Part shown: positions 15,423-63,466 of the stretch, one piece after another
How the letters are laid out: each line of letters begins with the position of its first letter
Position numbering within the stretch: the stretch's first letter is position 1
Source: Vermamoeba vermiformis
Taxonomy: Eukaryota
NCBI GenBank assembly: GCA_045837725.1
Contig: JBEWZL010000200.1
Location: 124,001 to 188,000, forward strand
Length of the DNA: 64,000 bases
Reading direction: 5' to 3'
Translations under genes and position numbers: made by a program
Notes under the pieces: generated by a model
Database searches by the model: none
Seen by the model: the letters and a program-made list of their open reading frames with translations, nothing else
Told to the model about the DNA's origin: nothing

Positions 15423-16099
15423 ATTGTTTAGAACGAAAAACAAGCTCCGTTAAAGGAGTGACACTGTTTTACTCAAAGGCCACGTGAAAGAAACATTTCG
15501 AACGTTTGTAAACTTCCAAAAAAGATGATGAAGTTCCAGAATACCGAAGTATATTTTCAGGGCAAGCTCGCAGTAATTCTTTCCGTTAAAGAGCTCTAGG
15601 ATGTTTAGCTCAGCTGAATCTAAAGGAATCTGTTCGGATTAATTGTTCGTGACCCATGATGCTTGGATTCGAATAATCCCTACAGAAAGCGTTAGTAGCT
15701 GTTACCACAATTTTGCGCGAGGAATGTTGATTCTTCGATTGCCTTGCAAACCGAAATAGCTTCTTTTCAAATCCAACAAAAACTACAAATAATTCAAAAA
15801 AATTCGAATTTTATCCTTAAATCTTACTTAAAGACGTCTTAATATAGAGCGAATTTTAGGATGCGTAAAAAATTTTTTGTGCTGACCGAGCGGATTCAAT
15901 TCCAGAAGGTTCTGTCCGACATCCGAAGCTAGACTCTGCAAATAACATGCTAGTAATCGATGATACGGCTCAATCGAGTGGAAATACTTCATGTTGTAAG
16001 TTTTCATGGGAGGTATTACTAATTGTTCAAAACAAAAATACATTTTTATTTTTGAAACGAGCTCCAAAGAGATCCCGTTCGAGAGTTCGCTCGAACCAT

Positions 16100-21088: not shown

Positions 21089-21604
21089 TTGCACGCTTTT
21101 ATGGTGGTGTGTAAGTGCAGCACAAATAACAGAAAAGATTTTTTTAAAATTTTTAAACAATTTATACCTTTGCAAGTCTTAAATTGTCAATCAAGTCTCG
21201 ATGTGTCGAACGCGATAAGAAGGTCTTTAAACATTGCTCAGAGGTTTTTCTTTTTGTAAGATGATTATCAAGATTGCCCGCATTAAAAAAAATTATTGCA
21301 ATCTTTGAAAAACCTCAATCGCCGAAGTTTTATCGATAAAAAGTTAATATATTGCTCATAAAGATCTTTGAAAGCCTGAACGATTTCCAATGCAAAGGCG
21401 CTAGTCTACTTTCAGACCAAACTGAAAAAAAAAATCCGGCTTGGGAATTTCCCATTCGAGATGAACGGTTATGGAAGGCCTGCGTAGTACGAAATGTGTT
21501 AAGAAGGAACCCAGTATTCTGCCACATAATAAATAATTATTAACTGTTATTTTTAATTCGAGTTATTTACATGAGTTATATTGTACAAGGAGGCGAAAGC
21601 TATA

Positions 21605-29985: not shown

Positions 29986-32900
29986 CTACATCTTTGAGTC
30001 AAGAATAAAATTGAGTTCTTTGACGACTTGATCCATACTCGGTCGATCATCTGGTGATTGAGCCCAGCACTTGCTGATCAGTTCTGCGACTGTTATGGGA
30101 GTGTTAGGCGGGATCGGCAATCGACCGCCGTCAATGACCATGTTGGCGATCTGCCACGGGTGTTCCAAGTGCGAGTAAGGCATTTGTTGTGACATGATTG
30201 TCCACAAAAGAATGCCAAAGCTGTAAATGTCTGCTCCTTTCTCGTATCGCTTGTTCTCCATGATTTCTATCATTAACATTTTAGTACGTCAAACACTGAT
30301 GAATCAGATCAGCAGATCTGACACGTGTCACCACAAACATCTAATCCATTGACCGTGTCATGGTCATCGATGTTTGTGCCGTGTTGCAATTTAGCGTGTC
30401 AAAAAATGTCACGTGATCAGACTTACCAGGAGCCATGTAAGTAGGTGTGCCAACACCCTTGGTGAACTTCATGGTCACTTCTTCGACAATTGATCGAGCA
30501 GTGCCAAAGTCAGTCAGTTTGACATTCACTGATGCTTCTTTGGCTGTCGATGCAACCAACACATTCTCTGCTTTGATGTCGCGATGAAGAATGTTGTTTG
30601 CGTGCAAGAATTGAAGTGCTTCTGCAACATCCAATGCAATCTTCAGTTTCAATCCTGTGTCCAATGGTCTGCTGTTCAACAGTTCTTGAAGATTGCCTCC
30701 TGAAACGAACTCTGTCAAGATGGCAAGCTTTCCAGGCACTTTTGATGCTCCGATGAACTGCACAATGCATCTGTGGTGCAAGTTCATCATCATTTGCACT
30801 TCGCGGTTGAACTCTTCGAACTGTTGAATGTTCATTTCTTGGAACTACGATAGAAACAGAGTTAGTTCGAGCTTGACTTTTTTTGACACTTTTGACATGT
30901 TGACACGTGTCATTTGGTTTATCATTCACTTACCTTGAGCTTCTTGAAGGCGATCGTTTGACCACGATACTTGGCTTTGTACACAGCACCAAATCCTCCT
31001 TCACCAAGTGCTTCAGTCACACCATCAACTTCATCGATGTCAATCCAAGGTGATGGTTCACTTGCACAAACAAACTCGAGCAATGAGAACTGTTTGAGTT
31101 CAGGAACTTCGACCCACAGTGAGATGTTTGTGCGTGTTGTCATTCTCATTTGCAGCATCAGTGTCACATCGACATAACCTTTGTCGCGAATGTCAATCTC
31201 GAACGGGTCAACAGTGAGCTGGTATTTGGTCGACTGAACTGGATGAAAGTTGACACGAAGACTCTTCTCAAGAAGTCGCTCAACAAGGCCTCGGGACCGT
31301 GTAAGCTTTGCGCGGCTCTGCACTCGGAAGGTGTCTTTGTACATGGAGTCAACTTGCAAGAGATTGCCTTTGGTGCCAAAATCGAACTTTGTGTTTGACA
31401 ACTGAATGGGCAAGTCTTCGATTGGTTTGAGTGAGTAGTCTTCTGGTGCATGCCACTGAGGAAGTGAGAACTGATCGTCTGCTCCGTTCTTTGTGGTCAG
31501 TGTCAGCAGTTCCACTCTGTTCAACAATTGTTCAACTCGTCGTTTGCCTCTGAAATATCTGTACGTCACTGCACCGATTACGATGAAGAGTATGGAGCCA
31601 CCAGTTACAGAAATAACTATCGCGATAATTACGCCTGTCCGCATGTTGGTTAATAGTTGCTCAAAAATGACACGTGTCAAAGTGTCAAAGTGTCATTGCT
31701 TACCTTGCGCCACTGAGGTGTCAGGACAGGTCAATGATACCGTCAAGGCTTGTTTTCCTGATCTTTCGCTCGTGGAAGTTGTAATAATGCACTCTTTGCC
31801 TTCCGCAACAATGTTCAATTCATCGGTGGATCCGCAAGAGTAGAACAAGAATGTAGTCTCCAGGTGCGACTCTTCATACTCGCTCATGTCAATGGCGATA
31901 GTGCCTCTTGCTTCGATGCATTCTATATCAATTCTATTGCTGTGTTGAATCACCAAGGTGCCGCCATCAAGCAGAAGTTCTATCGTGAAAAACGTTAAAA
32001 AAAACGGAAGGGGCTTGGCGTTGGTTAATGTAACGTACTTTCAAAGTGGTCTGCGTCTCGTAAGTCAACCGTGGCACCTTTGGGGACGCGCAAAAGATTT
32101 TCAACGGGACATCCATTTGTAACTTCGCACGAGTATTGTGCGAGTGAGCAACAAAATTGGTTTGCGCCAATTGAACACCGTGCAGTACTGTTGCCCGACA
32201 CTCTGAACTGGTCGGGGAGTTGAATGCAGCCAGAAAACGAATTGCCCGTGATATTACTGGTAAGTGTTAGCGTCGTATTAAGGGTAAAGGGCCTTACATG
32301 TTCATCACATTGCCTAAATTGGTAAGTGAAGGCAGTGTTCCGCTGAGCTGGTTCGATGAGAGGTCTCTGTCGTGATATTATATTATGGGAAAGTGGCACA
32401 CGTTAAATAAATTTTTCTTACAAGTGCTCTAGGGCTCGCAAGTTGGCTATTTGACGCGAGACTGTGCCAGTTAGGGAATTTCGCGATAGATCGCTAACAC
32501 ATTAAAACAAGTTAGGTCGTGTGGTACTATAAGAATATATTGGTCTTACATCCGACGAACGCGTTGTAAACTAAAGAGACTGTGCGGGATTGTGCCACTC
32601 AATTGATTGCGACTTAGATCCAGGGCATTGATGCTTCGCAGGGAATCGAACATTGACGGGATCTCGCCCGTGAACATATTGCCTGCGAGGCTCCTGTCAT
32701 GGATTAGTTAGCACGAGAATACTAATGAATGGACTATGGATCATCCTTACAAATAGTGCAAGCTGAAGATTTCTCCCAAGTACGGCGGAATAGGCCCTTC
32801 AATTCGATTGCGCTCGACATTCCTTTAATCGGTCAATTAACGTGATAATTTGATAATTTAGAACACTTACAGAACTTCTAATCCCAAAAGATTAACGAAG

Positions 32901-42432: not shown

Positions 42433-45400
42433 TTAAATCTTCGAAGCAAGAAGGAAATTGAGTTCTTTGACGACTTGATCCATACTCGGTCGATCATCTG
42501 GTGACTGAGCCCAGCACTTGTTGATCAGTTCTGCGACTGCTACTGGAGCGGTTGGTGGAATGGGAAGGCGCTTGCCCTCGAGGACCATGTTGGCTACTTG
42601 CCACGGGTGTTCCAAGTGCGAGTAAGGCATTTGTTGCGACATGATTGTCCACAAAAGAATGCCAAAGCTGTAAATGTCTGCTCCTTTTTCATATCGCTTG
42701 TTCTCCATGATTTCTACAATAAAACGTTAGTATGAGAGCAACAGCAATTGAACGGCCGTGAGACCAGCAGTTCACGATGACACGTGTCAACATAAACTTT
42801 TGATGTCGTAGAACTTACCAGGAGCCATGTAAGTGGGAGTACCAACACCCTTGGTGAACTTCATGGTCACTTCTTCGACAATCGATCGAGCAGTGCCAAA
42901 GTCAGTCAGTTTGACATTCACTGATGCTTCTTTGGCTGTCGAGGCAACCAACACATTCTCTGCTTTGATGTCACGATGAAGAATGTTGTTTGCGTGCAAG
43001 AATTGAAGTGCTTCTGCAACATCCAATGCAATCTTCAGTTTCAATCCTGTGTCCAATGGTCTGCTGTTCAACAGTTCTTGAAGATTGCCTCCTGAAACGA
43101 ACTCTGTCAAGATGGCAAGCTTTCCAGGCACTTTTGATGCTCCGATGAACTGCACAATGCATCTGTGGTGCAAGTTCATCATCATTTGCACTTCGCGATT
43201 GAACTCTTCGAACTGCTGGATGTTCATTTCTTGGAACTACGATGGAAACAGAGTTAGTTTGAGCTTGACACCTTGATGACACTTTTGACACGTGTCAATC
43301 GCTTTATCGCAATGACTTACCTTGAGCTTCTTGAATGCGATCGTTTGACCTCTATATCGTGCTTTGTACACAGCGCCAAATCCTCCTTCACCAAGTGCTT
43401 CAGTCACACCATCAACTTCATCGATGTCGATCCAAGGTGATGGTTCGCTTGCACTAACGAATTCCAACAAAGAGAACTGTTTGAGTTCAGGAACTTCGAC
43501 CCACAGTGAGATGTTTGTGCGTGTTGTCATTCTCATTTGCAGCATCAGTGTCACGTCAACGAAGCCTTTGTCGCGTACATCGACTTCGAACGGGTCTATT
43601 GTCAGTTGATACTTTCGACGACTGAACTGGATGAAAGTTGACACGAAGACTCTTCTCGAGCAATCGTTCGATTAGTCCTCGCGACCTCGAGGCCTTAGTA
43701 CGTGGCTGTATCCTGAACGTGTCTTTGTACATGGAATCAACTTGCAAGAGATTGCCTTTGGTGCCAAAATCGAACTTTGTGTTTGACAATTGAATGGGCA
43801 AGTCTTCGATTGGTTTGAGCGAGTAGTCTTCTGGTGCATGCCACTGAGGAAGTGAGAACTGATCGTCTGCTCCGTTCTTTGTCGTCAGTGTCAGCAGTTC
43901 CACTCTGTTCAGCAGTTGTTCAACTCGTCGTTTGCCTCTGAAATATCTGTACGTCACTGCACCAATGACAATGAAGAGTATGCAACCGCCCGTAACAGAG
44001 ATTACAATTGCAATAATGACTCCTGTTAAAGTGTTGTAAGTTGACACGTGTCAATGTCTGATTCGTGCAACATACCTCGATCAAGTGACGTGTCTGGGCA
44101 CGAGACAGTAGCAGTGAACAATCGCTTTCCTGCTTGCTCGCGTAGACTCGTGGTCACGGAACAGACTTTGCCTTCAGCCTTCACTGTCATCTTCGACGTG
44201 TCACCGCACGAGAAGTACAAGAACGGCGCGTCATACTGCTCGTCCTCCAAGTCCTGCATGTCGATCTCTATTGCGCCCTCAATGGTGGCACACTCGACGT
44301 CAATTTGCTGGTCTGGCTTGATCACTAGAGTTCCGCCTTGTTCGATCCGAAGTTCTATAAGTTCGCGTGTTAGAATTGACCTTTCGCGAGCGGTATTATA
44401 CTTACTGTCAAAACTGTCTGCGTGCTCGTACTTGACACGTGCTCCTTGTGGAATCAAAAGTAATTGCTCAAGCGGACAACGTTCAGTGAAGTCGCACACG
44501 TATTCAGCGTTTGCACAGCAGAAATTGTTTCTAGCGAGTCCACAAGCAGCTGTACGATTGTTTGACGCTTCAAACTGTTCGGGTAACTGAATGCAGCCCG
44601 AAAACGCGTTGAGAGATATGTTGCTGTTGAATGTTAGAGGATTGAAATTTTCAGATCTATGTCAGGGTGACTTACAAGTTCACCAAGTTCCGCAGATTAG
44701 ACAAGTTTGGTATTGTTCCGCTGAGTCGATTGCGTGAAAGATCACTATTACATCGTCGTTAGTGTTAGTCTTCAGACCATGACCGAATGACTCACAGGAA
44801 TTCGAGCGTTCGCACGTTGACAATAGAAGACGGAATGGTGCCGCTCAGCGAGTTTCGCGCCAAATTACTACGAAGGCGTTAGCTTGCATTAAATGGGTGT
44901 TGCGAAGTGAGACTTACATCCGCGATACGCGCTGCAGATTGAACAAACTGGGCGGAATTTCTCCCGAGAGTCGGTTGTTGCTCAGATCCAGCTGAGTGAT
45001 GGAGCGCAAAGACTCGAATAATAGCGGAATAGTGCCGACCAAGTTGTTGTGAGACATGAACAGGCCTTGTAACGTGTACATCTCGCCAATAAATGAGGGG
45101 AAAGTCCCGTCTAATCTGTTCATCGTGACATCCAAATTTTCAAGCGCTCGTAGATCCACAAAACTCGGCGGGATGTTTCCCGTCAAACTATTTCCAGCGA
45201 CAAGACTATTGAAGGTAATTAATTAGTATAACTTTCCCGGATAACATTGAATCACGTACAAGTCTCGCAAAGACCTGAGCGAACTAAGCTGAGACGGAAT
45301 TTGCCCTACGATCCTGTTGAATGATAGATCGCTAATAATATTGTTAATAAGCAATAGAGGGGATAAGGGTTGAGCTAACTTACAGCACTTCGAGCATTGG

Positions 45401-48400
45401 CAAGTTCGAGAAAGTTGGAGGAATGACACCGCTGAACAAATTAAGACCAAGTCGCCTGCCGCAAAGTTAAACCATGACATATCAGCTGTTCAATGGACTT
45501 ACAGTTCGCGCAGCTGTCTTGGTCGTGCATTTAGCGTCGGAAGAATTCCCGTTAGCATGTTACTTGTGAGATCGCTGAACATGGTTGTTAGAAAGGTCAA
45601 GGTAGCAGAGTCACGTGACTTACATTATTTGAATATTCGGCAAGAACATGGCAGGACTGATGCCGCCGCTCAATCGGTTGTGACCTAACCGCAGCGTGTG
45701 AAGTCCAATAATGAATGGATTGAACCTCGGCAATGGTCCCGTGAATTGATTGAACGACAAAATGCTAGTTATTGCGGGTAAGTATTAGGAATGTAATAAT
45801 AGTAGATTAAAAGTTACTTACATATTTTGAATGGCATTCGTTAAGATCGAGTTTGGAATTGTTCCGCTCAGAATATTGAATGACAAGTCACTAACATTAA
45901 AAGTTAATCGTTACAATAAGTCATATTCTTGTAATAGTAACTGCTTACATATGTCTGAGACTACTAGTTTGAGGGAAGGCAGGAAGGGTGCCCGTCAAGA
46001 AATTGTGCGAAATATCACTGACGCAAACGTTAAGTCGCGTTAATTAGAACAAATGTCTGATAGACAGAACTTACATCGACGTGAGCAGAGGAAGTCTCAA
46101 ATAATCTTCAGGAAAGGTTCCAGTAAAGCCGTTTCGTGCTAGATTGCTAAAACGAAGTCGTAAGTATTATGTGCAACGTTTGGACAAAAACTTACAAAGC
46201 GGTCAATCTCGGGGCTAGAGCTGGCAATGGCCCTTGAAAGAAATTGTCCGACAGATCACTAGTTAGTCTTTGTTAGCAAATAGAAGAGTGCTCGTTGCGT
46301 TATTACGTACAGAAATTCAAGCCTAGGACCAATAATATCTGGCAGCGTGCCGGTGAGTTCGTTGTGTTGTAATTGCCTAACAGAGTGTTCAGTGCTAAAA
46401 ATCACGTGGTTGCGTTACTTACAATACTGAGCAACGCGTGCCATTCGTGAGTGGCAATGGGCCCGTGAGTTGATTGTACGACAGATCGCTAAAAGAGGAG
46501 TTAGAAGAGTTATGGGTGGAGAAGTGGTATATTAAGGTATCCAGGTACTTACATAGCCATGTCTGCGTCACTATCCAAAAGACCAAGCGGAATTGTTCCG
46601 CTTAATCGATTATTACTCAAGTTTCTTTAAATCAAAGGGTTAGTTATTCCGCTTGAGATTGACGTTAAAACCTTACAATTCTGAAAACTGCCGGCCAACC
46701 ATAGTGCGCGGTATCGGGCCTCTAAAATTATTCGCCTGCAGGAAAATACTTCGTAATCCAGGTAACTGATCGAAGGCATCAGGAATTGTTCCGCTGAACG
46801 AGTTGAACTGCAAAGACCTATTTAGGAATAGCTAAGTACGATAGTCAGGCATTTATGAAACGCTTACAATGCTCTTAGCGAGGACATGTTGCGGAATGTG
46901 AATATTGTGCCGGTGAGTTCATTAAAGCCCAGCATGCTACAAGTATTAGATTAGAACAATACAGGCAAAAGAATAAAGATCTTCTTACAGAGCCGTCAAC
47001 GTCGTTAAATTTTGAAAGTTCTGCGGGACCGTTCCCGTGAGCCGATTGTTCTCCATTCGTCTATGCAATAAAAAAGTTAATATGAAAAAATAAATGTTTT
47101 TTCGCGTACAATGTTTGTATTGAAGAAAGCTGCCCAAGTTCTTCAGGGATAGTTCCGTATAATTGATTGTTGTCCATAGACCTTGGTTGATTAATTAAGT
47201 TAAAACGATTGTCATAATAACGTATGAATAAGGATTGATTAACTTACAAAAAATTTAACGCTTGTAGCGAACCAAGCGAAGCGGGAATTGTTCCAGTCAA
47301 CAAATTGTCGTCTAAATGAACGAAACTTAACCGAGGATTCGTAAATGGCGGAATGGTGCCAGAGAGTTGATTGCCGCTCAACAATCTGAATAAGACTTCT
47401 TAGTTTGACAGCAGTATTTTAAGATGCCGCTAAACTTACAAATCACGTAACATAGTACAGTTGATTATAGAATCAGGTATAGGACCAGTTATATCATTCG
47501 AAGCGAGCATACTAAGATACGATTAACAATACCGTCGTATATTAAAAAGTACTTACAATCGTTCCAAACTTCGCAAATTACCAATGTTACTTGGAATCGT
47601 TCCTCTCAATTCGTTATGAGTCATGTCCCTGCATATTATCGTTAATAAGGACTAATAAGGTCGTGGTCCTATGTACGCACAAGATTTGCAAATTAACGAG
47701 GTTGGTGATCGTGTCTGGAATCGTTCCCATCAATAAAGCACCGTTGGCATTACTGCAAAGATGTTAGTAAGCGAATAGTACGGTGATATTGGTTACGTAC
47801 AATCTTCTCAAATTGACTAAATTGCCGATCCGTGGATCCAGTTCACCCACAATTCTAGATCCGTGAATACGCCTAAGTATAATCAATTAATGAACGTGGT
47901 ATATAATACGCCAGTAGATTAGAACGTACAATTCTTCGAGGTTGATGCAGTCGTAAATCTCAGGAAACACTATCAACTGCGATTGAAACAAGTCCCTAAT
48001 TTAGAAAATTAATTAAAAATTGTTCCGCGCGTTTAAAATAAATAAATTTTCGTACAACACTCGCAGTCTTTGCAATCTGCCTAAACAGGACGGCAATCGA
48101 CTCGGTGTAGCGAAGCTCAGATCTAGCACTTCTAAATTCACCACATCGCACAGCCTATCATCTGTCAATCGTGTGTTCGTCATGACCCTAAATTCAATAG
48201 TTAGATAATTCCTGAATTAATGTCTCGTGGACCCTTACAAGCGACGAAGGTTTTGTAATGAGCCAAAAGTTGGTGGTAATGCTACCAACGCAGCTGGAAG
48301 TGATCTATAAATTGGATAATTAATGTTAATATTTAGAAGTTCAATACACTCGTTAGTAGCTAGGCATACAATTCTTCCAAAAAAGGAAATGACGTGCCAA

Positions 48401-49632: not shown

Positions 49633-52600
49633 ATGCACGTCGCTATTCCATATTATCTGCAATTATTTATTGTTATTTCATGTATATTTTTTGTAAATAG
49701 ATCGTCGTGCTCACTTGTAGAGGAAGAGAGGCAATTTTTTGAAGACTTAACGACAGCAAATCCAGCCTTTGTTCTGCCAGTTAGTGTGGATGATGTTTGC
49801 TCGTGGGGACGTGTTAACTGTACAGAGGACGGTTCGCACGTGATAGGGTTGTAAGTAATAGTCTTTTGCTATCAATCTAATTTGCAAATCTCTTGATTAA
49901 GATTATTCCAGCGCAGATCTGAAAAAGATCACACAAAGTCCAATTTATTTACCAATATTATTTAATGACATAATTCTGGCTTAGCGATCGCCGTATTGAT
50001 TTAATATTAACTTAAATAATTGTAATCAATTGTAAATCTTTCTCTGTGACACACGCGTCTCCTTGATCTGACCAGAAAAGCTCAAATATTTTTAATTAGG
50101 AATCTAGCTCGCCAGCGAGTACCAATTCTGCCGTATTCCATCGCTAATCTCACACACTTGCGTAATTTGTAAGTTTGAACGTTAGTCTGAAGGAAACAAC
50201 AACTAATAATCACCTTATAATTAGGGACCTTTCTTTCGTGGGCATTGGAGACCAAGGAATAGAGCGATTAATTCCTCTGTCAGGCCTCGTTCAGTTGTAA
50301 GTCGATCTAATTTTTTTCTGGATTGCAAAACTGAAAAACCGTTATTTTTTAGAGTCCTACGTCAAACTAACGCTTTTGAGCTTCCTGAGACTTTTGGATA
50401 TTCATTTCCTAATTTGGAGATATTGTACGTCCATGCGCCATTTTTAATATTGAAGCTAATTTTATTGACCAGAGATTTGCCAGACTCGTTAGTTTCTATT
50501 CCAATCGGCTTTAATGAACTTCGAAACTTAAAGAGCCTGTAAGTAAGCCAATGTACACCTCATTCGATCTAATAAAGCTTTCAGAACAATGCGCTTTGGA
50601 AATCCGGCTTACATGGAAAGATTTTGTGGCCTGCCTAACCTCGAAGTCCTCGATTTAGTGAACTCAATCGCTCAATCATTACCGCAATGTTTTAGCAATG
50701 GATTTCCAAAACTACGCACTTTGTAGGTTTAACATTACAATAGTAGATCGCGATCAGACCCTAATTCTTTTTGTTAGAGCTCTCGCTTGGTCGTCTTTGA
50801 GAGCATTTCCTGATATTTTTGGCCTGGAGACTTTAGAGGAATTGTAAGATAATTGTAAAATTATTAATGGGTATTGATCCTGATCTCTTCAGACACATTT
50901 CCATGACAACTCTTAATGTAATGATACCACGCGATATAGGCAGATTAAGGAGCTTAAGGACATTGTACGTATTAATGGTTGCTTGGTGTCATAGGCGCTG
51001 ACTTTGTGATAGGAACTTCTTTTCAGCGGGAATTATTGGCCCGATACCAGACACGATTGGAGACCTGCGAAATCTTGAAAACCTGTAAGTATAGATCTAT
51101 TGCTATATAAGGTAATTTTATGCTAACAGATCTCAGATTGCTTGGAGATAATACTCTCTTGAGCACTATACCAGCGTCGATAGGCAGACTCACGAATTTA
51201 AAGCAATTGTAAGGATTGTTTTCAACGTCTTATTATTCAGTACTAACTATTTTGTAGAACTTTAAGTTCAAACACTTTAGTGAGAGAAATTCCGGAGGAG
51301 ATCTGCAACCTCGAAAAATTAGAAAGTCTGTAAGTATCTGACCACATTCGTCGATAGATAAATGATTAATACGTATATATCGCAGTAATTTAGGCAACAA
51401 CCAGCTATCCGGAGGTATTCCGGACTGCATTGGCAGATTGACGCGATTGCAAAACTTCCAGTTGAGCCACAACACTCTCGACGGCACGGTCCCTTCATCT
51501 ATTGGCGCCTTGACTAACTTGACCACATTGTAAGCACTATTTGAGTACGTAGTTGCAATACTAACGAGCGAATTTTAGGCAATTTAGCAACAACCAACTG
51601 ACCGGAACTTTGCCCGACGAGTTGGGAAATTTACAACAATTAGACGCGTTGTAAGTTCTATATGAATATCTATTTGCATGCTAATTATGTTGCGTAGGTC
51701 TTTCGATAATAATCAATTGGTTGGTACTCTGCCAGCTACCCTTCAAAACCTTCAACGCCTGTTAATTTTGTAAGTCATGCCAACCTAACACGCGCTATTA
51801 ATCGGTATTAATGCATATTATTAGCCAAGCGTCTTTCAATAACCTTGAAGGTCCTCTATTCAACATCTCTAACATGCCTCGCTTGGAGTTTTGGCACGTA
51901 GTATTTCCTCGTGGTTTTCGAATATTATAGTAATAAGTCTTTATAGCGAGGTTCAATTCAATGCTCTGAGCGGTCAATTGCCTGATTTCTTCACGAGCGA
52001 GTGCGGACTCTCTAGCTTTCAAGCGCAATCGAATAATCTCACGGGCACCATTCCTCGGTCCCTGCAGAACTTGAATTATCTGCAGCAATTGTAGGATTAA
52101 TATCAATGTAGTTCATACCATATATGCTAATGTAATATTAATCAGGAATTTGGGCAACAATAGAATTACGGGCACGATCCCAGAACTTTTGTTCACGCAG
52201 CCACAGCGATTAACTGTCGTGTAAGTTGTTTGACAATACGTTAAATTCACGTTGATTCTAAGCTTAGACTCTTTTTAATAGGGATCTCTCGGATAATTTT
52301 ATCACCGGCACTGTGCCTCCTATTATCGCTCGTTTGCGCTCATTGTACGTACAAGACTCGACACGACAAACAAGCAGAACTAACTTTCTTTAATCAGATT
52401 CTTAGAGAACAATAATTTAATCGGTGCTATCCCACCACTGGACAATGCAACGGTGTTGAACTTCATGTAAGTGGAGCGATGTCATCGTTCAATCGTCAAT
52501 TGATAACTAACTGACTGACCAGCGATCTTTCGAATAATAAGCTCGAAGGTACCTTGCCTCCGTTGCCAACACAACTCTTGTTTGCGTGAGTACCGAATAA

Positions 52601-55600
52601 TACCATTGCTCCTCCAATTACTGACTTTGCGAAAGTTCGTTTGCATCCAATCTTCTCACGGGCACATTTCCGATCGAGTACACGCAAATCCCTGGCTTGG
52701 CGACGCTGTAAGATGAGAATTCTATATAGCGCCCTATACTAACGGGTCTTAACTTCAGTGATTTGTCCAATAATGACCTGTACGGCCCGTTCCCGAGAGG
52801 AATTCCGCAGAACCTTCCTTTTCGACATTTAGACGTGTCGCACAATCGAATGAATGGCACGATCCCTTCCGGATTGATTTCACAATCAATTCAGACCTTG
52901 TAAGCTCTCTCCTTACTGTCCGTTTTATATGAAACTAACCGTGACCATATTGTAGAATTTTGTCAAACAATCACTTTGGCGGAACTCTACCGACGTACAA
53001 TTCACTGGCATTCAATTTGCATACATTGTAAGTGGTCCGATACGATATCGTTCAATTCGACGTCAGCGTTAGTGCGCTAATTACTTCAATCAACAGACTA
53101 TTGGACAACAACCGAATCGGAGGAAATGTACCACGTGCCCAATTTTCATTAATGAACCTCGAAGTATTGTACGTGACGTCATATTCGACTTATCAACGGA
53201 ATTAGTTCTTACATTAATTATTCCAGGAACTTGTCTGGCAATCTTTTGCGAGGCAATTTGCCAGCAATTACGCAACGTCTACGTAGATTGCGAGTGCTGT
53301 ACGTAATCTTAATGCATGTCAATAAGCACTCACTAACATTGCTCGTAGTAACATCTCGTTCAATTTTATATCCGGCGTTCTTCCGCCCTCGCTATCGAAC
53401 ATTGTTAATCTCGAAGAGCTGTAAGTATAAGCTCATCGTATCTGAATTTCTAACGTTCGACAGAAACCTATCGGCGAACGACTTTATTGGCACGATTCCT
53501 TCTCAGTTAGGCGCTTTGGCCAGTCTTCGAGTATTGTAAGTTGCAGATGTAAAATCGGTGTATTGATTAAATCTGTCTAGGAACTTGGCCGTGAATCACT
53601 TAACTGGCGGAATCCCGATTAGTTTTGCAGGCCATGAGTCCCTGACGTCACTGTAAGAAAAGAACGGCACCTCTATTAATGATTAACCCGTAAATAGGAT
53701 TCTCAAGTCTAACCAGCTGTCTGGCACTATTCCGAACTACATTTGTGAACTTTTCAATCTTCAACGACTGTAAGAATCCACTCTAAAAATCAGTGCAAAA
53801 TATTAACCGAGCTATTTTTAGTGATTTGTCGGTCAATTATTTCACTGGAACTCTTCCCGAGTCAATAGAACAACTGCGAGGCTTGCACTATCTGTAAGGA
53901 TTACTAACGGTGTCGTTGAAGAGCTCTTCTTAATTGTGCTTAGGGACCTCGGAAAAAATCACATATCGGGCGAGATCCCTGTCAATTTGTTCGCCTTGCA
54001 GCGACTGCGCCGATTGTAAGTCGAACTGACTTAAAATATTCTAATGCGGAGGTGACTAATGCTGATGTAGGGATCTCTCGCAAAACGAACTTTCAGGCAC
54101 TATTCCACAGGAAATATCAAACGCACGCTTGATTGAATGGATAAACTTGTCGCGCAATAAGCTCCAAGGAACTCTGCCTTCATTAATGGGACTAACTGAA
54201 GTCATAGAATTGTACGTACTTGAGATTTCTTAGTAGTCTTCTTCTAACAATCCTTCAGCCATATTGCCTCGAACAATTTAGTCGGCTGCATACAGCTGCC
54301 ACGCATATTTGAAAGTTCTCGGAACAGATCCCACATAGCAGCCTGTTCCATCGACAACAACCGTTTCTGCTGTTCACGCAATGACTACGTGTGCTCTACA
54401 ACAGGTTCGTTGGCTTTTTAATCGCTGCACACGTGCTTTTGATTCTAATCTCGTCATTACAATCCAGATTATTGCCCACTAGATGAAGCTTTGATAATTG
54501 CCAGTGGAGACCGCGTTCGAATCAAACCTCGCTTCCATTATGACAGTAAGCTTTCAGATGTCTTGACGGCGCTTATTTAACACGTATCAGAGCTTGTCGT
54601 AGAGCAAGGCGGCACTCTTGTGATATTGCCCGAGACAAAGTTAGACATTGAGTGCGTGACGGTACTCGGTACAATTGAAGTTGACGTCAGTGAGTTAGAA
54701 GAAGAGTCTATAGACGTGCCATTTTTGTCGTTCTCGTGCGGTGAGACGGAGAGTATGACTATGACAGCTGTGGGCTTTGGAAAGAAATGCGAAGTTTCTA
54801 GCACGACCGTTCAAAATGCTGGCTCGAAACGAAAGTTCACCGCCAAAGTCCCATGTCCTAACAATTTACTGCCAGAAGGTACGGAGTTGAAACCCATTCC
54901 TTTACAGTCGCTAACATACTGCTGTAGGAACGATCATTGCCATCATCGTGTCAGTTACTGGTGGTTTCATTTTAGTGATTGTAATTGGTGGCGTGACGTA
55001 CAGATATTTCAGAGGCAAACGACGAGTTGAACAACTGTTGAACAGAGTGGAACTGCTGACACTGACCACAAAGAACGGAGCAGACGATCAGTTCTCACTT
55101 CCTCAGTGGCATGCACCAGAAGACTACTCGCTCAAACCAATCGAAGACTTGCCCATTCAATTGTCAAACACAAAGTTCGACTTTGGAACCAAAGGCAATC
55201 TCTTGCAAGTCGACTCCATGTACAAAGACACCTTCAGAGTGCAGAGCCGCACCAAGATTGGTCAGTCCCGAGGACTTGTTGAGCGACTACTTGAGAAGAG
55301 TCTTCGTGTCAACTTTCATCCAGTTCAGTCGACCAAGTACCAGCTCACAGTTGATCCGTTCGAGATTGACATTCGCGACAAAGGTTACGTCGATGTGACA
55401 CTGATGCTGCAAATGAGAATGACAACACGCACAAACATCTCACTGTGGGTCGAAGTTCCTGAACTCAAACAGTTCTCTTTGTTGGAATTCGTTTGTGCAA
55501 GTGAACCATCACCTTGGATCGACATCGATGAAGTTGATGGTGTGACTGAAGCACTTGGTGAAGGAGGATTTGGTGCTGTGTACAAAGCCAAGTATCGTGG

Positions 55601-56465
55601 TCAAACGATCGCATTCAAGAAGCTCAAAGTAAGTCGCCAAGAAGGAATGACACGTGTCAAAAGTGTCATCAAGTGTCAAGCTTGAACTAACTCTGTTTCT
55701 ATTGTAGTTCCAAGAGATGAACATCCAGCAGTTCGAAGAGTTCAATCGTGAAGTGCAAATGATGATGAACTTGCACCACAGATGCATTGTGCAGTTCATC
55801 GGAGCATCAAAAGTGCCTGGAAAGCTTGCCATCTTGACAGAGTTCGTTTCAGGAGGCAATCTTCAAGAACTGTTGAACAGCAGACCATTGGACACAGGAT
55901 TGAAACTGAAGATTGCATTGGATGTTGCAGAAGCACTTCAATTCTTGCACGCAAACAACATTCTTCATCGTGACATCAAAGCAGAGAATGTGTTGGTTGC
56001 ATCGACAGCCAAAGAAGCATCAGTGAATGTCAAACTGACTGACTTTGGCACTGCTCGATCAATTGTTGAAGAAGTGACCATGAAGTTCACAAAAGGCATT
56101 GGCACGCCTACATACATGGCTCCTGGTAAGTCCTACCACATCGCAATATTACACGAACGAGGTACTAACGCATTACAGAAATTCTTGAGAACAAGCGATA
56201 CGAGAAAGGAGCAGACATTTACAGCTTTGGCATTCTTTTGTGGACAATCATGTCGCAACAAATGCCTTACTCGCACTTGGAACACCCATGGCAGATCGCC
56301 AACATGGTCATTGAAGGTAAACGCTTGACCATGCCGCCAACCGCGCCAGTGGCAGTGGCAGAACTGATCAGCAAGTGCTGGGCTCAATCACCAGATGATC
56401 GACCGAGTATGGATCAAGTCGTCAAAGAACTGGATTTAATTATCGAACTTGCAAACGCACACTAA
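49633..56465 (+). CDS. LRR receptor kinase RK3
   Basis: Signal peptide, DVCSWGRVNC, about 31 LRR-bearing exons (50100-54403), TM GTIIAIIVSVTGGFILVIVIGGVTY, and a complete kinase. Confidence 0.92.
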
Positions 56466-59400
56466 ACTATTAAACTCTGTAGCGCAGAAATGCCGTTACA
56501 ATCATAAAAATTTATCTGGAACAAGGTCCGTTACGCTATTTTTACTTTACGTTAAGGTTATAACGACAAAAGTAGAATGTAACTTTAATTAGAACATGGG
56601 AAAAGATGCAAACAAGCTTTGAGAAATTTAATTACGCGGATGTGATTCATTTTTTCGACATGACAGCCCAAATTTTCACTTGTCCTCATCAATGGCATTG
56701 TGTCGCTGTGATAGACGGAACAAACATGCTTTGCCATTAATATAATTAAAAGTATGCGAGATAATTATTTATTTGTGCTCATCCAGCTGGTTTTGCTCTT
56801 GCTCACGAGCTTTACGTTTGGCGATTTAATACCCTCCGAGCAAATATTTTTTGAGGAATTATTACAGCAAAATCCCACGCTGAGCCCGAGTTTAAATCCA
56901 GGCGGATCGATTAATCGACCATGCTCTTGGTTCGGTGTTTTGTGCACCGCCACCGGAGAGAATGCTTTAGAGATGTAAGTAATCATTATTTGCAATGGTT
57001 ACAACGGAGTGGTTGCTTGATTGATCTGATCAACCTAATCCATTTCCTTCTAACACGACTGATTCCATTATTTTCATTAGAAGTTTGATACTACAGTTTA
57101 ATGTCATACCAAACTCTATTGGCAACCTTCAATATTTGAGATCGCTGTAAGTTCCAGATCAGCTCATTTTTATTCCCTTATTTTTCTTTAATAAAATGTA
57201 AATATCAAATTAATAATTATGCTAATGCATCTTGCAGAGGGTTGTCGGGCAGAGTATTGGCAATCCCACCAGAAATTGCAAAACTTAATCAAACACTAGA
57301 AAATCTGTAAGTTACGTTACAGATCCGAAAACAGCATGTTATTTAATCTATTTAAGCTATTTATTATTTAATCTAACTGCCTCATTTGCTAGGAGGATTA
57401 TTGGCGCCCAGATCAACGAGACAGATGTCACTTACTTGCTACCGCTTCGTAATCTTCGCATTTTGTAAGTACTTTACTATTATACGCTTAATATTTAAAT
57501 GCTTACTAATTGTTATTAAGAACACTCACTTTGTCAGTCCCTCGGGTCTCAACTTTACCGCCGAACTTCGCAACGTCTTTTCCGAATCTAGTCGAGCTGT
57601 ACGAAAATTCGTTAATACTCACGAGGATAATGCGTACTAATGCCTTCTCAGACAATTGCCAGAATCCTTAACAGCGTTGCCGGATCTGTCGGCCTTGCAG
57701 AGATTGAGAACATTGTAAGTGGACGACGGTACTAACAACAATTATCTAATTATAAATTATAATTAAGGATATTAAGGGGCTATAACGGTCCCTTCCACGA
57801 CTCAATTTGCAATCTAATAGGATTAGAACGGTTGGATCTCGAAAATGCGCTTGGAGTGAGAAGACTTCCTGAATGCATTAACAGAGTTATTAGCTTGCGA
57901 TATTTGTACGTTAATTATTACAATTACGATGCTCAGAATTTAACTTGGATGCAGGAACTTGGCCCGATCCGGTCTTGGATTTGTTCCAAATGTTTATGGC
58001 TTGCGCTTCCTCGAAGAACTGTAAGAATATTCTTTAATAATGAACGTAACCATTCTTATATTAATAAATTATTTAGGTATTTGAACGAAATTAGGGCCGT
58101 GGGAACAATATCACCTGAAATTGGACAGTTGACGAGCCTCAAAATATTGTACGATAGACAGTACACCATATATGGACAAATAATATGATACTGATACTAA
58201 ATTTATAGCCATGGCGAATCTATGACGACAACTAGCGGACTGCTTCCTGATACGATCGGCAATCTCGTAAATTTGGTCGAATTGTATGCGCCGAAATTGT
58301 TCATTTTATTATCGAACTAACCTAGATATTAAATAGGAAGTTGTTTAATAACGAAATTAGTGGCACTATTCCAGCGAGTATCGGGAATCTTAAACAACTG
58401 AAAATGCTGTAAGAAAAATATCTGGTATACTTATTGTACTAATTTATTTGCCTTCAAGAGATTTACGACAAAATAGCTTAGAGGGCACCATACCGAACGA
58501 AATTGTTAATTGTGAGAGCATGGAAGTTATGTACGTAAATTTTGTTTATTGAATCAAAACGACCAAACTAATCACGATCTTTCGATAACGATAGAATGTT
58601 AGATAATAATATGCTCAGTGGTACAATACCGAATGACTTGGGAAGGCTAAAAAACTTGATGGGCCTACAAATCATAAGCAACGTGCTTGAAGGCACAATT
58701 CCTGCGTCATTAGCGCAGTGTAGCAATCTGTCGCTCATGTAAGCATAATTTAACTCGTCGTATTTAACACGATATGTCTAACGTTATCAGCGCGCTCATG
58801 TCAAATCAACTGACCGGAACATTGCCGCCAGAATTCTCACAGCTGTCAAATCTGGTTCATTTGTAAGTCCATGATTTTCATCGACCTTTTGTTTGACATA
58901 TTGACAGGGTTATGGGCAATAATCTGTTGCATGGCACGATCCCGCGGTCGTACTCGAATCTACGTAAGCTCTGGAGCATGTAAGTACTAGGGCAATGGAC
59001 AGCATGTGTCAAAGTGTCACTAACAAGATTGACACGTGTCACAAACTGCTACCCAGTACAGCGAACAAAATTAACAACCTTTACTTTCAGTCAACTGTCA
59101 TACAATAATTTGGAGGGGTCGCTCATTAGCTTTGCTGAAATGCCAGAACTACGGTCAATGTAAGGGCTTTGAACTTACTCTTATGAATCTGCGACACTAA
59201 CGGCGCTAACAGAACAATGGAATTTAATCGCCTTACGGGCGCCATTCCCGACACATTTTACACCAATACGGTGTTGAGTCACGTTTTCTTGCAAAACAAC
59301 GAATTATCGGGCACTATTCCGCAGTCAATCAGTTTGCTGCCAAGCATATTGGACATGTACGACAAAAAAATTTTAGCATTTTTCAGTGCGCTACTAACCC

Positions 59401-62400
59401 TACTGTCGCAGCAATTTGAGCCGAAACCAACTACGCGGAACAATTCATCCTGCAACCTTTCTAGATAGATCATTAGTACGGCTGTACGTAATTAATAGCT
59501 GCGATTAATCATCGATAATTAACTAATTGATGGCAGCGACTACTCGAACAACTTGCTCGAAGGGCCGTTACCTCCTATTAGATCCGCTGTGCTCAACATG
59601 GTGTACGTCTTTCGATTAGTCAATTTCGGACTAAAAGCAAAATACTAACAATAATTTCGAAGAAATCTTGCAAATAATAGGTTGAACGGTTCAATTGGCC
59701 ATTTCAGTGCATGTGGGCAGTGCGCTACTATGTACGTAAATACTAATATTATTATTCGCTTTATTAATCTTAATCTCTGTATAGTGACCTCTCAAATAAT
59801 TTCTTCGAGGGATCATTGCCTGACCTCAACACAAGGATGACTCAGTTGTACGTAAAACAAGGTTACTTTTTGTTCGCAATTACTAACTCAACTTATTGTA
59901 GCGACCTGTCGCGTAACCAATTAAGCGGAACCATTCCCCAATATTACGTTTCGAACACTCATTTGAATCGATTGTAAGTGCAGGATGTTAATTGACCTCT
60001 AATTAACAAATCTAACGGAGCCTATTTTAGGGTGTTAGCGCATAACAATCTTACTGGAGAACTTTTAACGGACGGTTGGCCTCTGCTGCGGCACGTGTAA
60101 GTAAAATGAAAAATTTAATACGACTACAAAAATAACCCAAAAATAGAGATGTCTCTTATAATCAATTGCAAGGAACCATTCCAAGACGACTTATGGAGGT
60201 TGCCCAAGTTTTGTAAGCATCAGATCTAACTTTTTTTTCGTTTTCGGCCTAACTTATTTACTTAGAATTTTTTCGCATAATCAATTCTCTGGCCCATTTC
60301 CATCAGTATTTATCCGAACAGACTTGGTGCGGATCCATTTTGACAATAATAGGCTCTCAGATCTACTTCGTCCTAGTTTCCTCGATCATCCGAACTTGGA
60401 AATTATGTAAGAACAACACTATTAGCGGCTAATTATTACTTTATTAATGCATTAGCAGGGACCTTTCAAACAACAATTTCCGTGGCATGTTGCCGGCAAT
60501 TACATTATCGCAGCCATCGAAGTTACGAGTGCTGTAAGTCACAATCTTACTTGCCAAATAAGGCAATATTAATATGGTATACTGATAGGCGCATGTCTGG
60601 CAATCGCTTTATGGGCGCAGTTCCGGGCACATTTGCGCTGATGGCGAGCCTCGAGATCCTGTATGTCAAACACAAAATTCTAAGAAATCCTAACTAATGC
60701 TTCTTTTGCAGTGACTTATCGAATAACTTACTGAATGGTCAATTACCGCCACAATGGGGCTCATTTAGACACTTGCGTGAATTGTACGGTGAAAATTCTA
60801 GCACCCGCGCGTACCGCTAACTTTTTGCATCTAGGTACCTGTCTGATAATCGATTTACTGGAAACTTCCCGGCAACATTTGATGCTCTTGAGTCCCTCGA
60901 AGTACTGTACGTATAGCTATTATATTATTTTGTAACCTGTCTTCTCACCAATCGCATCAGTGACGTGTCCAACAACAATTTTGATGGACCACTGCCCGGC
61001 GCTCTGTTTAACTTGTTGACTTTGCAATCATTGTAAGACCGTTAAATACAGTAGTAATGTATTGATTATTAATAATTTTGCAGGAACATGGCTCACAATC
61101 GATTCACCGATCAGATCCACATTACTTTGTTCCAACTCTTGCTTACGCTTACGGACATGTATGGCCTTAAAGCTTAGCATACTAACACCTTACTAACCTA
61201 TTATAGTAATTTGAGCCACAACTTGTTCACGGGCACACTGCCGACAACATTGTTCAATTTGCATCGTATCAGACGAATGTACGTTCACCTCGGCAATCCG
61301 TTCTTGCATAATGTACTCATTATTATAACTTCGTAGTGATCTATCGTATAATTCTTTGACGGGCACCATCCCTAGTGCAGTATCAAATATGAGAACTCTC
61401 GAAGAACTGTAAGCCGATAATTTTTCACAGTCTCCTTGCGCGGAATGCTAATTAAACATCTTGTTAGATCGCTATCGGCAAATCAACTGAGCGGAACAAT
61501 ACCTGTATTGTCTGGATTGAAAAACTTGGCCAAATTGTACGTCAACATCAATGACCTGGTCATAAGCAAGGCTCTAACCTTTCCTTATTTAGTAATGTCG
61601 ATTCAAACTCGTTGACTGGCTGTCTGCGGCTACCAACTCGATTCTTAGCCTCAAATAACTCTACGACGTACACAGGTCAATGTTCAATCGAAGGAAATCC
61701 AATCTGTTGCAGTCCAGAGCAGTACACGTGCACGACTAGCGGTACGAACTATGGAGCTAGAGTCAATGTCCGTGTGCTAAACAAGAGTTATCTTTGCAGG
61801 TTGCAATGCAGACCGTGTGTTACATGCCAGTCAAGACCGGGCCTGGGTTATAGTCCGCACTGAAGGCTTTCCCTATGACAGTAAGTTGTCATATTAAGCA
61901 CAATTGTCATTATAACTCATCAACTGCTTTGCAGAAATCATTGTGGACCCGGGAGCAGTGCTGACATTGCCGACAGCTTTCAGTGGCTCAGTCTACTGTG
62001 CAAATGTCACGGGTGTCATCGAAATACTGCCCGTACACAGCGAGACATATGCTCCTACGGTCGTAACTCACACTTGCGGCGTGTTCTCTCCGAGTTCAGT
62101 GTTCATGAGGGACGAGCGATGTCGCATTACAAATCGTGCAGTGAGTGCGCAAGGTGATGCAACAACGTACACGTATGACTGGCAGTGCACGCAGCCTGAG
62201 CCAGCTGTGTCGACTGGAGTGGTTGTAGCTGCTGTAGTTACGAGTGTTGGTGGCACTATTTTGTTCGTGGTGATTGGCATCATTTCCGTGCGTTATGTAC
62301 GAGGCAAACGACGAGTCGAACAACTGTTGAACAGAGTGGAACTGCTGACACTGACCACAAAGAACGGAGCAGACGATCAGTTCTCACTTCCTCAGTGGCA

Positions 62401-63466
62401 TGCACCAGAAGACTACTCGCTCAAACCAATCGAAGACTTGCCCATTCAGTTGTCAAACACAAAGTTCGACTTTGGCACCAAAGGCAATCTCTTGCAAGTT
62501 GATTCCATGTACAAGGACACGTTCACGATGCAAGCCAAAGCAAAGCCGAGCAACTCCCGCGGCTTAATTGAACGACTCATCGAGAAGACTGTGCACGTTC
62601 AGTTCCATCCAGTTCAGTCGTCAAAGTTCCAACTCACCGTGGACCCAGCTGAAATTGATCTTCGCGGCAAAGATGAAGTTAGTGTGACACTGATGCTGCA
62701 AATGAGAATGACAACACGCACAAACATCTCACTGTGGGTCGAAGTTCCTGAACTCAAACAGTTCTCTTTGCTCGAGTTTGTTTGTGCAAGTGAACCATCA
62801 CCTTGGATTGACATCGATGACGTCAACGACATTAGCGAGCCACTTGGTGAAGGAGGGTTTGGTGCTGTGTACAAAGCCAAGTACCGTGGACAACAAGTGG
62901 CGTTTAAGAAACTCAAGGTAAGTTGTGACAATTAATGAAATGACACGTGTCAACACGTCAAAAGTGTCATTTACTAATCGCTGTCATGAACAGTACCAGG
63001 AAATGGACCTACCATTGCTTGAAGAGTTCAACCGCGAAGTGCAAATGATGATGAACTTGCACCACAGATGCATTGTGCAGTTCATCGGAGCATCAAAAGT
63101 GCCTGGAAAGCTTGCCATCTTGACAGAGTTCGTTTCAGGAGGCAATCTTCAAGAACTGTTGAACAGCAGACCATTGGACACAGGATTGAAACTGAAGATT
63201 GCATTGGATGTTGCAGAAGCACTTCAGTTCTTGCACGCGAACAACATTCTTCATCGTGACATCAAAGCAGAGAATGTGTTGGTTGCATCGACAGCCAAAG
63301 AAGCATCAGTGAATGTCAAACTGACTGACTTTGGCACTGCTCGATCGATTGTCGAAGAAGTGACCATGAAGTTCACCAAGGGTGTTGGTACTCCCACTTA
63401 CATGGCTCCTGGTAAGTCTGATCACGTGGCACTTTTTGACACCGTGAAAAATATTGACACGTGTCA
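55648..63466. repeat. Intronic palindrome TGACACGTGTCA copies in RK3 (55648) and RK4 (59030, 62941, 63455)
   Basis: Perfect copies, all intronic, mostly with adjacent AAGTGTCA/TTTGACAC half-sites. Confidence 0.9.

Follow-up and report, generated by a model that had tools for sequence, protein, structure and literature searches.

Genomes, and the coding sequences within them, reportedly contain fewer TpA (in RNA, UpA) dinucleotides than would be expected. This scarcity is among the oldest unexplained regularities of genome composition, and the parts played in it by mutation and by selection are hard to separate. Related regularities involve the same dinucleotide: vertebrate mRNAs and RNA viruses suppress CpG and UpA jointly, and repeat-induced point mutation (RIP) in fungi turns CpA into TpA. 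A different line of work concerns paralogous genes that evolve in concert. Yeast duplicates are said to have been the subject of a debate over codon bias versus conversion, theory reportedly holds that conversion raises the efficacy of selection, and GC-biased gene conversion has reportedly been found in multigene families such as those of the histones and Hsp70. TpA scarcity and concerted evolution are both known, as is the joint occurrence of the latter with codon bias in duplicates that are highly expressed. Here, we focus on a 64,000-nucleotide (nt) stretch of the Vermamoeba vermiformis genome (assembly GCA_045837725.1, contig JBEWZL010000200.1, positions 124,001 to 188,000 of the forward strand), called the window below, which carries four paralogous leucine-rich repeat (LRR) receptor-kinase genes, RK1 to RK4, with almost no TA at silent positions in the exons that encode their cytoplasmic part.

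The RK genes resemble each of these described systems and depart from each of them. As in general TpA scarcity, the same dinucleotide is affected, at silent sites and codon boundaries, with CA and TG in excess. However, the usual deficit is mild (the background observed/expected ratio, o/e, is about 0.85 here), whereas in the RK genes TA falls to between 0 and 0.2 in one module and the deficit stops at the transmembrane (TM) segment, within an exon. As in other concertedly evolving families, paralogs are closer to one another within a genome than to their own type elsewhere, tracts are identical even at synonymous sites, and the copies form a mosaic; unlike the known cases, which are highly expressed and show codon bias, the RK genes appear to be expressed at a low level and follow a dinucleotide rule that is independent of frame. 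A shift in composition tied to conversion tracts recalls GC-biased gene conversion, but the rise in GC content at third codon positions (GC3) is small (from 0.46-0.47 in the background to 0.50-0.53), CpG falls, and the introns of a conversion tract in a second lineage (metagenome loci L001 and L002) are unaffected. RIP, too, marks duplicated DNA through specific dinucleotides, namely CpA/TpG and TpA, but in the opposite direction: the RK exons are poor in TpA and rich in CpA/TpG. Finally, as in vertebrate and viral RNAs, the two self-complementary pyrimidine-purine dinucleotides are scarce and TG/CA abundant, while the host is not a vertebrate, background CpG o/e exceeds 1, the effect is local to one family and the CpG deficit is modest (0.55-0.75).

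The combination of a near-total TA purge that is frame-independent and exon-only, that affects one module of a weakly expressed receptor family and that ends at the edges of homology is apparently undescribed; among the titles and abstract openings returned by full-text searches on TpA with gene conversion and on UpA depletion with concerted evolution, nothing described this pattern. Mutation and selection are separable here within single genes, as exons can be set against introns of one tract, homogenised against unique exons, and intact against broken copies.

Silent TA depletion in the cytoplasmic exons

The window is eukaryotic DNA of about 40% GC with many short introns of the form GTAAGT...CTAAC...YAG. 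RK1 and RK2 lie on the minus strand and RK3 and RK4 on the plus strand (Table 1), and each encodes, in order, an LRR ectodomain (mostly in 72-nt exons), a TM segment, about 230 residues of juxtamembrane domain and the protein kinase domain. Gene models were obtained with a splice-aware dynamic programme, one RK3 exon being corrected by eye; their ectodomain parts are approximate, while the three cytoplasmic exons are secure.

An earlier note, made from the letters of the window alone, had reported two kinase-exon stretches without any TA and an upstream exon stretch with seven, had estimated that base composition would predict tens of TA in 400 nt, and had described the neighbouring LRR exons and other genes as rich in TA. 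Exact counts confirm the observation. Positions 55707-56108 (402 nt) hold 0 TA against 30.5 expected from base composition, 63012-63388 (377 nt) hold 0 against 27.5, and 55021-55628 (608 nt) hold 7 against 42.5, six of them in Tyr codons (five TAC, one TAT) and one in the Leu codon CTA. The four longest TA-free runs in the window, at 55705-56109 (404 nt), 30442-30846 (404 nt), 42840-43238 (398 nt) and 63010-63389 (379 nt), are the same kinase exon in RK3, RK1, RK2 and RK4, respectively; the next longest (224 and 161 nt) both fall in a low-complexity stretch of polypurine sequence (about 40.1-41.0 kb). Per 100 nt, TA occurs 1.5-1.8 times in the cytoplasmic exons, 4.9 times in LRR exons (n=57) and 3.6-8.9 times in other genes (21 open reading frame, ORF, segments). 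When o/e is computed in segments of 500 nt, most of the window has about 0.6-1.2 for TA, about 0.9-1.7 for CG and about 1.0 for TG+CA, whereas the four islands formed by the cytoplasmic exons have 0.14-0.4, 0.55-0.9 and 1.4-1.7, respectively. Outside the islands, a single segment, at 39001, has a TA o/e below 0.5 (0.49).

Also claimed was that the central kinase stretch lacks Tyr and uses Phe where related kinases often have Tyr. This held in part. The kinase exon is indeed without Tyr before the sequence TYMAP, but a purge at the amino-acid level was not seen: Tyr makes up 2.1-2.3% of the cytoplasmic part, against 2.6-2.8% in four relatives, and Phe/Tyr exchanges run in both directions.

Two null models were used to judge chance and codon usage. 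Under the recoding null the protein is held fixed and codons are redrawn from those of the window's LRR exons and other genes (5000 draws); under the permutation null a gene's own synonymous codons are shuffled (5000 permutations). For the RK3 cytoplasmic coding sequence (CDS; 1401 nt), recoding gives 77.5±6.4 TA (minimum 55) against the 21 seen, and own-codon permutation gives 30±3.9 TA at codon boundaries (minimum 17) against 5; in neither case was any of the 5000 as low. Equally long TA-free runs in codon-shuffled controls, which the earlier note had named as grounds for refutation, were never reproduced, the longest in the spliced RK3 CDS being 437 nt against maxima of 219 nt (recoding) and 332 nt (own-codon permutation). 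RK1 and RK4 gave the same outcome under both nulls.

The deficit can be resolved by codon position. At positions 2-3, TA o/e is 0.09-0.15 in the cytoplasmic exons, compared with 0.75 in the 57 LRR exons and 0.74 in the 21 ORF segments of other genes; across the codon boundary (3|1), it is 0.16-0.29 compared with 0.86 and 0.96; at positions 1-2, where TA means Tyr, it is 0.41-0.48 compared with 0.52 in other genes. The TA is lost from xTA codons and from NNT|ANN boundaries, where it is replaced by CA or TG. A dinucleotide tally against the recoding null has TA at 16 versus 68.3 (z -8.5), CA at 139 versus 88 (z 8.5), TG at 112 versus 84, CG at 46 versus 63 (ratio 0.73) and GG at 43 versus 65, with mononucleotides unchanged. 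Since both the codon and the boundary deficits are present while base composition, GC3 included, stays nearly flat, what operates is a rule on dinucleotides that holds for silent sites whatever the frame, rather than a GC shift or a codon preference of the tRNA type.

This bears directly on codon optimisation, according to which a very conserved domain would have been tuned for high or accurate translation and TA avoidance would be a side effect. Two-fold codons ending in C are preferred (TTC 0.76 versus 0.47, AAC 0.72 versus 0.45, TAC 0.83 versus 0.55), xTA codons are nearly unused (ATA 0 versus 0.20, GTA 0.03 versus 0.21, TTA 0.04 versus 0.21), and the protein sequence of the domain is almost invariant. 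However, the deficit at codon boundaries equals the codon effect and is reached by none of the own-codon permutations, four-fold boxes prefer the A-ending NCA codons, consistent with a dinucleotide rule, and the juxtamembrane block whose amino acids vary is as depleted as the rest while conserved TM-proximal residues are not. Expression looks low, and other conserved-domain genes in the window are normal, all of which makes this explanation improbable. In three RNA runs under the same species label, no reads fell on the RK3 LRR exons (depth 0), and depth over the shared blocks was at most about 9 per strand. Those reads match at 95-99%, most of them continue into unrelated flanking sequence, and they thus derive from other copies. 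Translational codon bias of the kind seen in highly expressed genes was not supported, given these depths and the failure of own-codon permutation to reproduce the boundary deficit.

The limits of the depletion are sharp. With the four cytoplasmic loci aligned by MAFFT, the alignment is a mosaic in which three blocks with a four-way identity of about 98-100%, which extends to synonymous sites, alternate with segments where all copies differ. There is 0.17 TA per 100 nt in the conserved blocks against 3.6 in the variable segments. Silent TA numbers 3-7 against about 6.5 expected in the TM segment, 0 against about 26.5 in the conserved blocks combined (in every copy) and 4-5 against about 15 in the last exon taken together with the end of the kinase exon. 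For the variable juxtamembrane block, where about 10 are expected, there are 1, 1 and 2 in RK1, RK3 and RK4 and 6 in RK2. Depletion sets in inside an exon, just past the TM segment, which is where DNA homology between the paralogs starts. It is strongest where homogenisation is strongest, yet it extends beyond the identical blocks. The ectodomain exons and other genes are not depleted, nor, by inspection only, is the 3' untranslated region (UTR).

Concerted evolution and the second lineage

Among 65 metagenome loci returned, L001 and L002 carry the same module at 95% protein identity. Comparison with them shows that interlocus gene conversion keeps the cytoplasmic module alike among copies. 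The kinase exon groups by genome: RK1 to RK4 are 94-98% alike, L001 and L002 are 100% identical, and identity between the two groups is 84-86%, with the caveat that L001 and L002 come from different assemblies. The last exon, on the other hand, groups by type across genomes, RK4 being 77% identical to L001 and RK1-3 being 76-79% identical to L002, against 63-67% across types; within the window, the RK4 last exon is 63-65% identical to those of RK1-3. Relationships among the copies shift along the alignment. A block of 110 codons shows 2-4 synonymous differences within the RK set and 32-36 when it is compared with L001/L002, and the identity within the genome is therefore due to homogenisation and not to a nucleotide constraint conserved between lineages. 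The proposal that TA loss is linked to homogenised, multi-copy sequence is thus borne out. Near-zero synonymous divergence (dS) combined with so extreme a dinucleotide bias will mislead dS-based dating and measures of codon usage in such families.

The number of copies taking part may be larger than four. In a DNA run under the same species label, summed contig depth rises from about 700 over the LRR part to 7000-8400 over the conserved blocks; such a sum is not equal to copy number, but it suggests that the genome has perhaps at least 10 copies of the family. Apart from these genes, repeats in the window amount to two stretches of about 200 nt, shared among other genes at 68-70% identity.

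The depletion persists in the second lineage. In L002, the ectodomain ORF has normal TA both at codon positions 2-3 (11 versus 11.2 expected) and at the codon boundary (16 versus 17.9), and the TM segment is normal too. Its juxtamembrane exon has 3 versus 22.2 and 6 versus 13.8 at the same two positions, and its kinase exon has 3 versus 20.1 and 5 versus 13.4; for each exon, 0 of 2000 permutations were as low. L002 avoids TA in this way despite third positions that are 72% A+T (GC3 of 27%). More distant relatives are weakly depleted, with 3 versus 13.4 and 11 versus 14.2 in L003, and 17 versus 22.8 and 11 versus 16.1 in L004. When the differences between the RK genes and L002 were polarised with L003 and L004, 25 favoured the RK state and 19 the L state while 44 were uninformative, too saturated a comparison to be of use. 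L002 also has an additional TA-rich intron of about 56 nt (1128-1183) in the juxtamembrane exon, after the codons for GEGG, which is without counterpart in all four genes of the window.

Persistence between lineages speaks to the idea, raised in the earlier note, that the block came from a donor of different composition. Such a donor might be a virus or another genome, with amelioration of the copied block still to come. The dinucleotide content of the islands does differ sharply from their surroundings. However, the exons belong to ordinary intron-bearing genes, their mononucleotide content equals the background, and the signature is common to two lineages that have diverged at about a third of third positions, one of which keeps it against strong AT pressure. 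The nearest kinases on viral contigs (18 loci) are only 28-41% identical. A foreign donor can hardly be credited.

The introns offer a further comparison. L001 and L002 have in common a tract of about 600 nt, about 99.7% identical, that extends from a piece of exon through intron 2 and the kinase exon over most of intron 3, with diverged flanks. The two introns within it, counted from the printed sequence, have 7 TA in 85 nt and about 10 TA in 64 nt. In this tract, conversion therefore covers genomic DNA, introns included, yet only the exons are TA-poor. In the window the picture is less clear-cut, with TA o/e in the intron cores of the cytoplasmic part at 0.58 compared with 0.98 in 81 LRR introns; about 37% of those cores (326 of 870 nt) consists of clusters of TGACA, TGTCA and CACGTG, and TA o/e is 0.78 after these are masked. 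CG o/e in the same introns is 1.17 compared with 1.55.

A bias inherent in conversion would be a mutational explanation. Heteroduplex repair, break initiation or error-prone repair synthesis would favour TG/CA over TA, and the effect would accumulate by molecular drive in perhaps at least 10 copies. Several observations fit: TA is wholly absent exactly in the nearly identical blocks, the onset of depletion is the onset of homology, contig depth is about tenfold over the blocks, the region's introns in the window are somewhat TA-poor, and the loss of TA and CG roughly matches the gain of TG and CA. Against it stand the high, normal TA of the two introns in the L001/L002 tract and the rise in window intron TA once the motif clusters are masked. 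Moreover, variable and little-repeated segments are TA-poor in the intact copies and not in RK2, whose frame is broken. A flat GC3 and base composition with falling CpG are not those of ordinary GC-biased conversion. For this genome, a conversion or repair bias is possible but unlikely. The specific proposal in the earlier note of A-to-G change at TA during repeated conversion or repair synthesis fares badly for the same reasons, namely the TA-rich tract introns and the barely moving GC3 and base composition. So does its suggestion that the region is protected from a genome-wide decay of CA/TG to TA, as the background (TG+CA about 1.0) has no excess of TA. GC-biased gene conversion was rejected on the small change in GC3, the lowered CpG, the unchanged GAA and AAA shares and a somewhat lower CAA share. 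RIP was rejected as running in the opposite direction, the repeated DNA here having low TA and high TG+CA.

Possible selection against UpA and competing constraints

Differences private to single copies are consistent with a filter that is still at work. We called a difference private where one copy differs from three that agree; the share creating TA that is expected from the sequence and the observed classes of change is 15-21%. In RK4, 7 of 128 private changes create TA versus 19.6 expected (P<0.001), and in RK1 and RK3 together 1 of 29 does so versus 6.1 expected (P=0.009). In RK2, however, there are 4 of 32 versus 5.9 expected (P=0.28). This copy has one extra base in its juxtamembrane exon, at about 43640 on the minus strand, relative to RK1, RK3 and RK4, which breaks the frame; when the base is ignored, there is no stop in 465 codons, and the conserved blocks of RK2 are still identical to those of the other copies. 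If real, the extra base would make RK2 a very recent pseudogene; otherwise it is an error of the assembly. With a broken frame and TA-creating changes near expectation, it fits selection on intact copies.

We tentatively favor, at somewhat less than an even chance, purifying selection against UpA in the spliced mRNA or in translation of the concertedly evolving module, with conversion spreading and freezing the TA-free state. Selection would act on intact copies and would be especially effective in, or specific to, this module; TA would be removed from the module's exons wherever the protein permits, and with conversion spreading and freezing the result, the most homogenised blocks would end with zero TA. 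The data themselves show the depletion, its confinement to exons and silent sites, its limits where homology ends, the concerted evolution and the persistence in a second lineage; that the filter is selection we infer. Among the causes listed in the earlier note, selection against UpA is the one that fits best, as only exons, and in them only silent sites, are affected, and intact copies show fewer TA-creating changes than expected.

How selection might come to be so effective here can be stated in two ways, which together are a possible but rather doubtful addition to the reading. Conversion among perhaps at least 10 copies may make visible a weak, genome-wide selection against UpA; alternatively, a lineage-specific RNA nuclease or surveillance directed at UpA may act on the cytosol-translated part of immune-like receptor messages. 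In the former case selection would gain in scaled strength in proportion to copy number, which would drive silent UpA to zero in exons only and leave introns of the same tract TA-rich. Were this amplification real, the family would demonstrate, in nature and in quantitative terms, that selection becomes more effective under concerted evolution. Should the exon-only purge hold family-wide, it would provide a clean natural experiment for UpA selection in mRNA as well as a test of the theory that conversion boosts the efficacy of weak selection.

Several observations weigh against selection on UpA. Elsewhere in the same mRNAs UA is plentiful: over roughly 3 kb from the ectodomain exons, in the TM segment and, as judged by inspection, in the 3' UTR. 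Stability of the mRNA as a whole therefore does not explain a purge limited to the cytoplasmic part. With TA at codon boundaries of other genes in the window close to expectation, any general selection must be weak. Expression of the RK genes looks low in the three RNA runs. The gradient with copy number is imperfect, as the variable juxtamembrane block, at a contig depth of only about 1.7 times baseline, nevertheless has a tenth of its expected silent TA. CpG is also reduced, though CpG o/e in background genes is at least 1, and selection on UpA does not predict a loss of CpG; the milder CpG deficit may be a separate effect at the DNA level on repeated DNA, as CG is also lower in the introns there. 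The RK2 contrast concerns one copy and a single inserted base that is possibly an assembly error. Lastly, among third-position transitions in reads and contigs of other copies, 3 of 24 create TA, compared with 112 of 445 possible ones (25%), which is only a weak trend.

A positive constraint could produce a similar outcome. The exons might be packed with CA/TG-rich elements related to the intronic motif TGACAC/GTGTCA, for instance sites for a family-wide regulator, or the message might resist a UA-specific nuclease on a 3' sub-transcript. The four loci are 4.2 times denser in TGACA/TGTCA and 6.6 times denser in TGACAC/GTGTCA than the rest of the window, and ACTGA, ACTGAC and GACAC exceed own-codon permutations (z 2.9-4.7). 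Motif clusters occupy a large part of the region's intron cores, and the 12-nt palindrome TGACACGTGTCA is found in intron 2 of L001/L002 as well. However, the permutation null ignores TA avoidance, and much of the k-mer excess may be a by-product of it (CTG|A or TTG|A replacing CTT|A or TTA). In addition, a third of third positions differ between lineages in the conserved block, where a fixed nucleotide element is accordingly not conserved, no Rfam family was found at 54000-57000, and no start of a 3' sub-transcript was seen in the reads. Such a constraint seems to us quite unlikely.

The palindrome itself has 12 exact copies in the window (14 with at most one mismatch, against 0.18 expected). 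Ten of the 12 lie in RK introns, as the suggested co-location with this motif would have it, nine of them in introns flanking cytoplasmic exons and often with additional copies of GTGTCA/TGACAC. In L001/L002 the rest of intron 2 differs in sequence from the window's introns, and TGACACGTGTCA is likely a functional intronic element. A literature search for the 12-mer matched, in titles and abstract openings, only unrelated papers on Ebola virus.

Three further candidates were rejected. Avoidance of cryptic splice sites does not fit the counts: the donor look-alike GTRAGT is expected only 0.2-0.3 times per CDS even when background codons are used, YTRAY occurs 12-14 times versus about 13, CTGAY 6 times versus 2.3 and CAG 30-34 times versus 17-19, and other long ORFs in the window have normal TA. 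Avoidance of poly(A) signals was likewise rejected. Overlapping reading frames were dismissed as well, as alternative frames over the exons, listed from stop to stop, reach at most 117 residues and TGA is in excess (40 versus 28.9).

Gene layout and other features of the window

Table 1. Positions in the window of the RK gene parts, the conserved blocks and the palindrome.
Feature	Position	Strand	Remarks
RK3 LRR ectodomain	50589..54878	+	Mostly 72-nt exons, introns about 50 nt; TA content normal; internal control; model approximate
RK3 TM segment and juxtamembrane exon (about 230 residues)	54928..55628	+	TA normal in the TM part to about 55043, depleted from 55044
Conserved block 1 (RK3 coordinates)	55044..55211	+	92-98% four-way identity; one TA per copy, in the Tyr codon TAC
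Conserved block 2 (RK3 coordinates)	55408..55469	+	100% four-way identity; no TA
RK3 intron 2	55629..55707	+	TGACACGTGTCA at 55648 and more copies of GTGTCA; splicing supported by RNA reads
RK3 kinase exon (kinase subdomains III-VIII)	55708..56125	+	TA-free from exon start to 56108
Conserved kinase block	55750..56079	+	330 nt; four-way identity 98%; TA absent from every copy
RK3 last exon with stop codon	56179..56465	+	Silent TA 5 versus about 14.5 expected in the 3' CDS segment including this exon
RK4 TM segment and juxtamembrane part of exon 61935-62917	62217..62917	+	
RK4 kinase exon	62994..63411	+	Holds TA-free run 63010-63389
RK4 last exon with stop codon	63564..63844	+	Divergent type: 63-65% to RK1-3, 77% to L001
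RK1 cytoplasmic part	29986..31634	-	Exons 31634-30934, 30844-30427 and 30266-29989 plus stop; TA-free run 30442-30846
RK2 cytoplasmic part	42433..44022	-	Exons 44022-43321 (+1 nt frameshift in juxtamembrane exon), 43236-42819 and 42713-42436 plus stop; TA-free run 42840-43238
TGACACGTGTCA	3768, 9705, 30319, 30901, 31668, 42778, 43286, 44042, 55648, 59030, 62941, 63455		Also in L002 at about 1274-1285

The identity of the RK genes follows from several kinds of evidence. In RK3, Pfam matches confirm a protein kinase domain on 55708-56124 (PF00069, 1.9e-30; PF07714, 1.5e-27) and on 56181-56465 (PF07714, 7.8e-19), and the kinase motifs HRDIKAENV and DFG are readable in the translation. Upstream LRRs were found in all four genes by tblastn with the metagenome protein P0003, which has LRR Pfam domains, and the exon translations show 24-residue units of the form LxxLxLxxNxLxGxIP. 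The putative TM segment is placed, by inspection, at the hydrophobic stretch IIAIIVSVTGGFILVIVIGGV. Among named kinases, those of Pelomyxa and Entamoeba are most similar, at about 50% identity, and metagenome proteins reach 69%. Splicing of RK3 intron 2 is seen in the three RNA runs as a joint from 55626 to 55706 that skips 79 nt.

The juxtamembrane domain of RK3 has no match in Pfam. It is conserved (window 54930-55628 and paralogs) in the metagenome relatives P0001-P0003 and P0005, the last of which has a Kelch-type ectodomain rather than an LRR one; it looks like an undescribed module common to several receptor types. The LRR ectodomains, at about 50600-54900, 57000-61900, 32000-35600 and 44100-48200, devote one 72-nt (24-codon) exon, or a multiple of it, to each repeat, and their introns of about 45-60 nt are inserted at the identical position of successive LRRs. 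In the single-copy ectodomain of RK3, alternative bases make up about 40% of summed depth in the DNA-run contigs at 51229, 54703-54760 and 54944, which allelic or strain variation could explain. Runs labelled as water or aquifer metagenomes and as several other organisms contained 6-35% of the words sampled from 52000-57000, a result with no bearing on habitat.

The polypurine tract that holds the next longest TA-free runs is GA-rich and about 800 nt long (about 40100-41000), with a GC skew of 0.43 and an AT skew of 0.31, and a T-rich tract lies at 39577-39723. A scan of 90 ORFs identified further genes in the window with BTB, ArfGap, TPR and F-box domains, an ALMT-like gene, EBP and four genes for Zn2Cys6 proteins. 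The latter are tandem binuclear cluster genes on the minus strand (14430-23546) that are 68-70% alike over stretches of about 200 nt only, and their TA content is normal.

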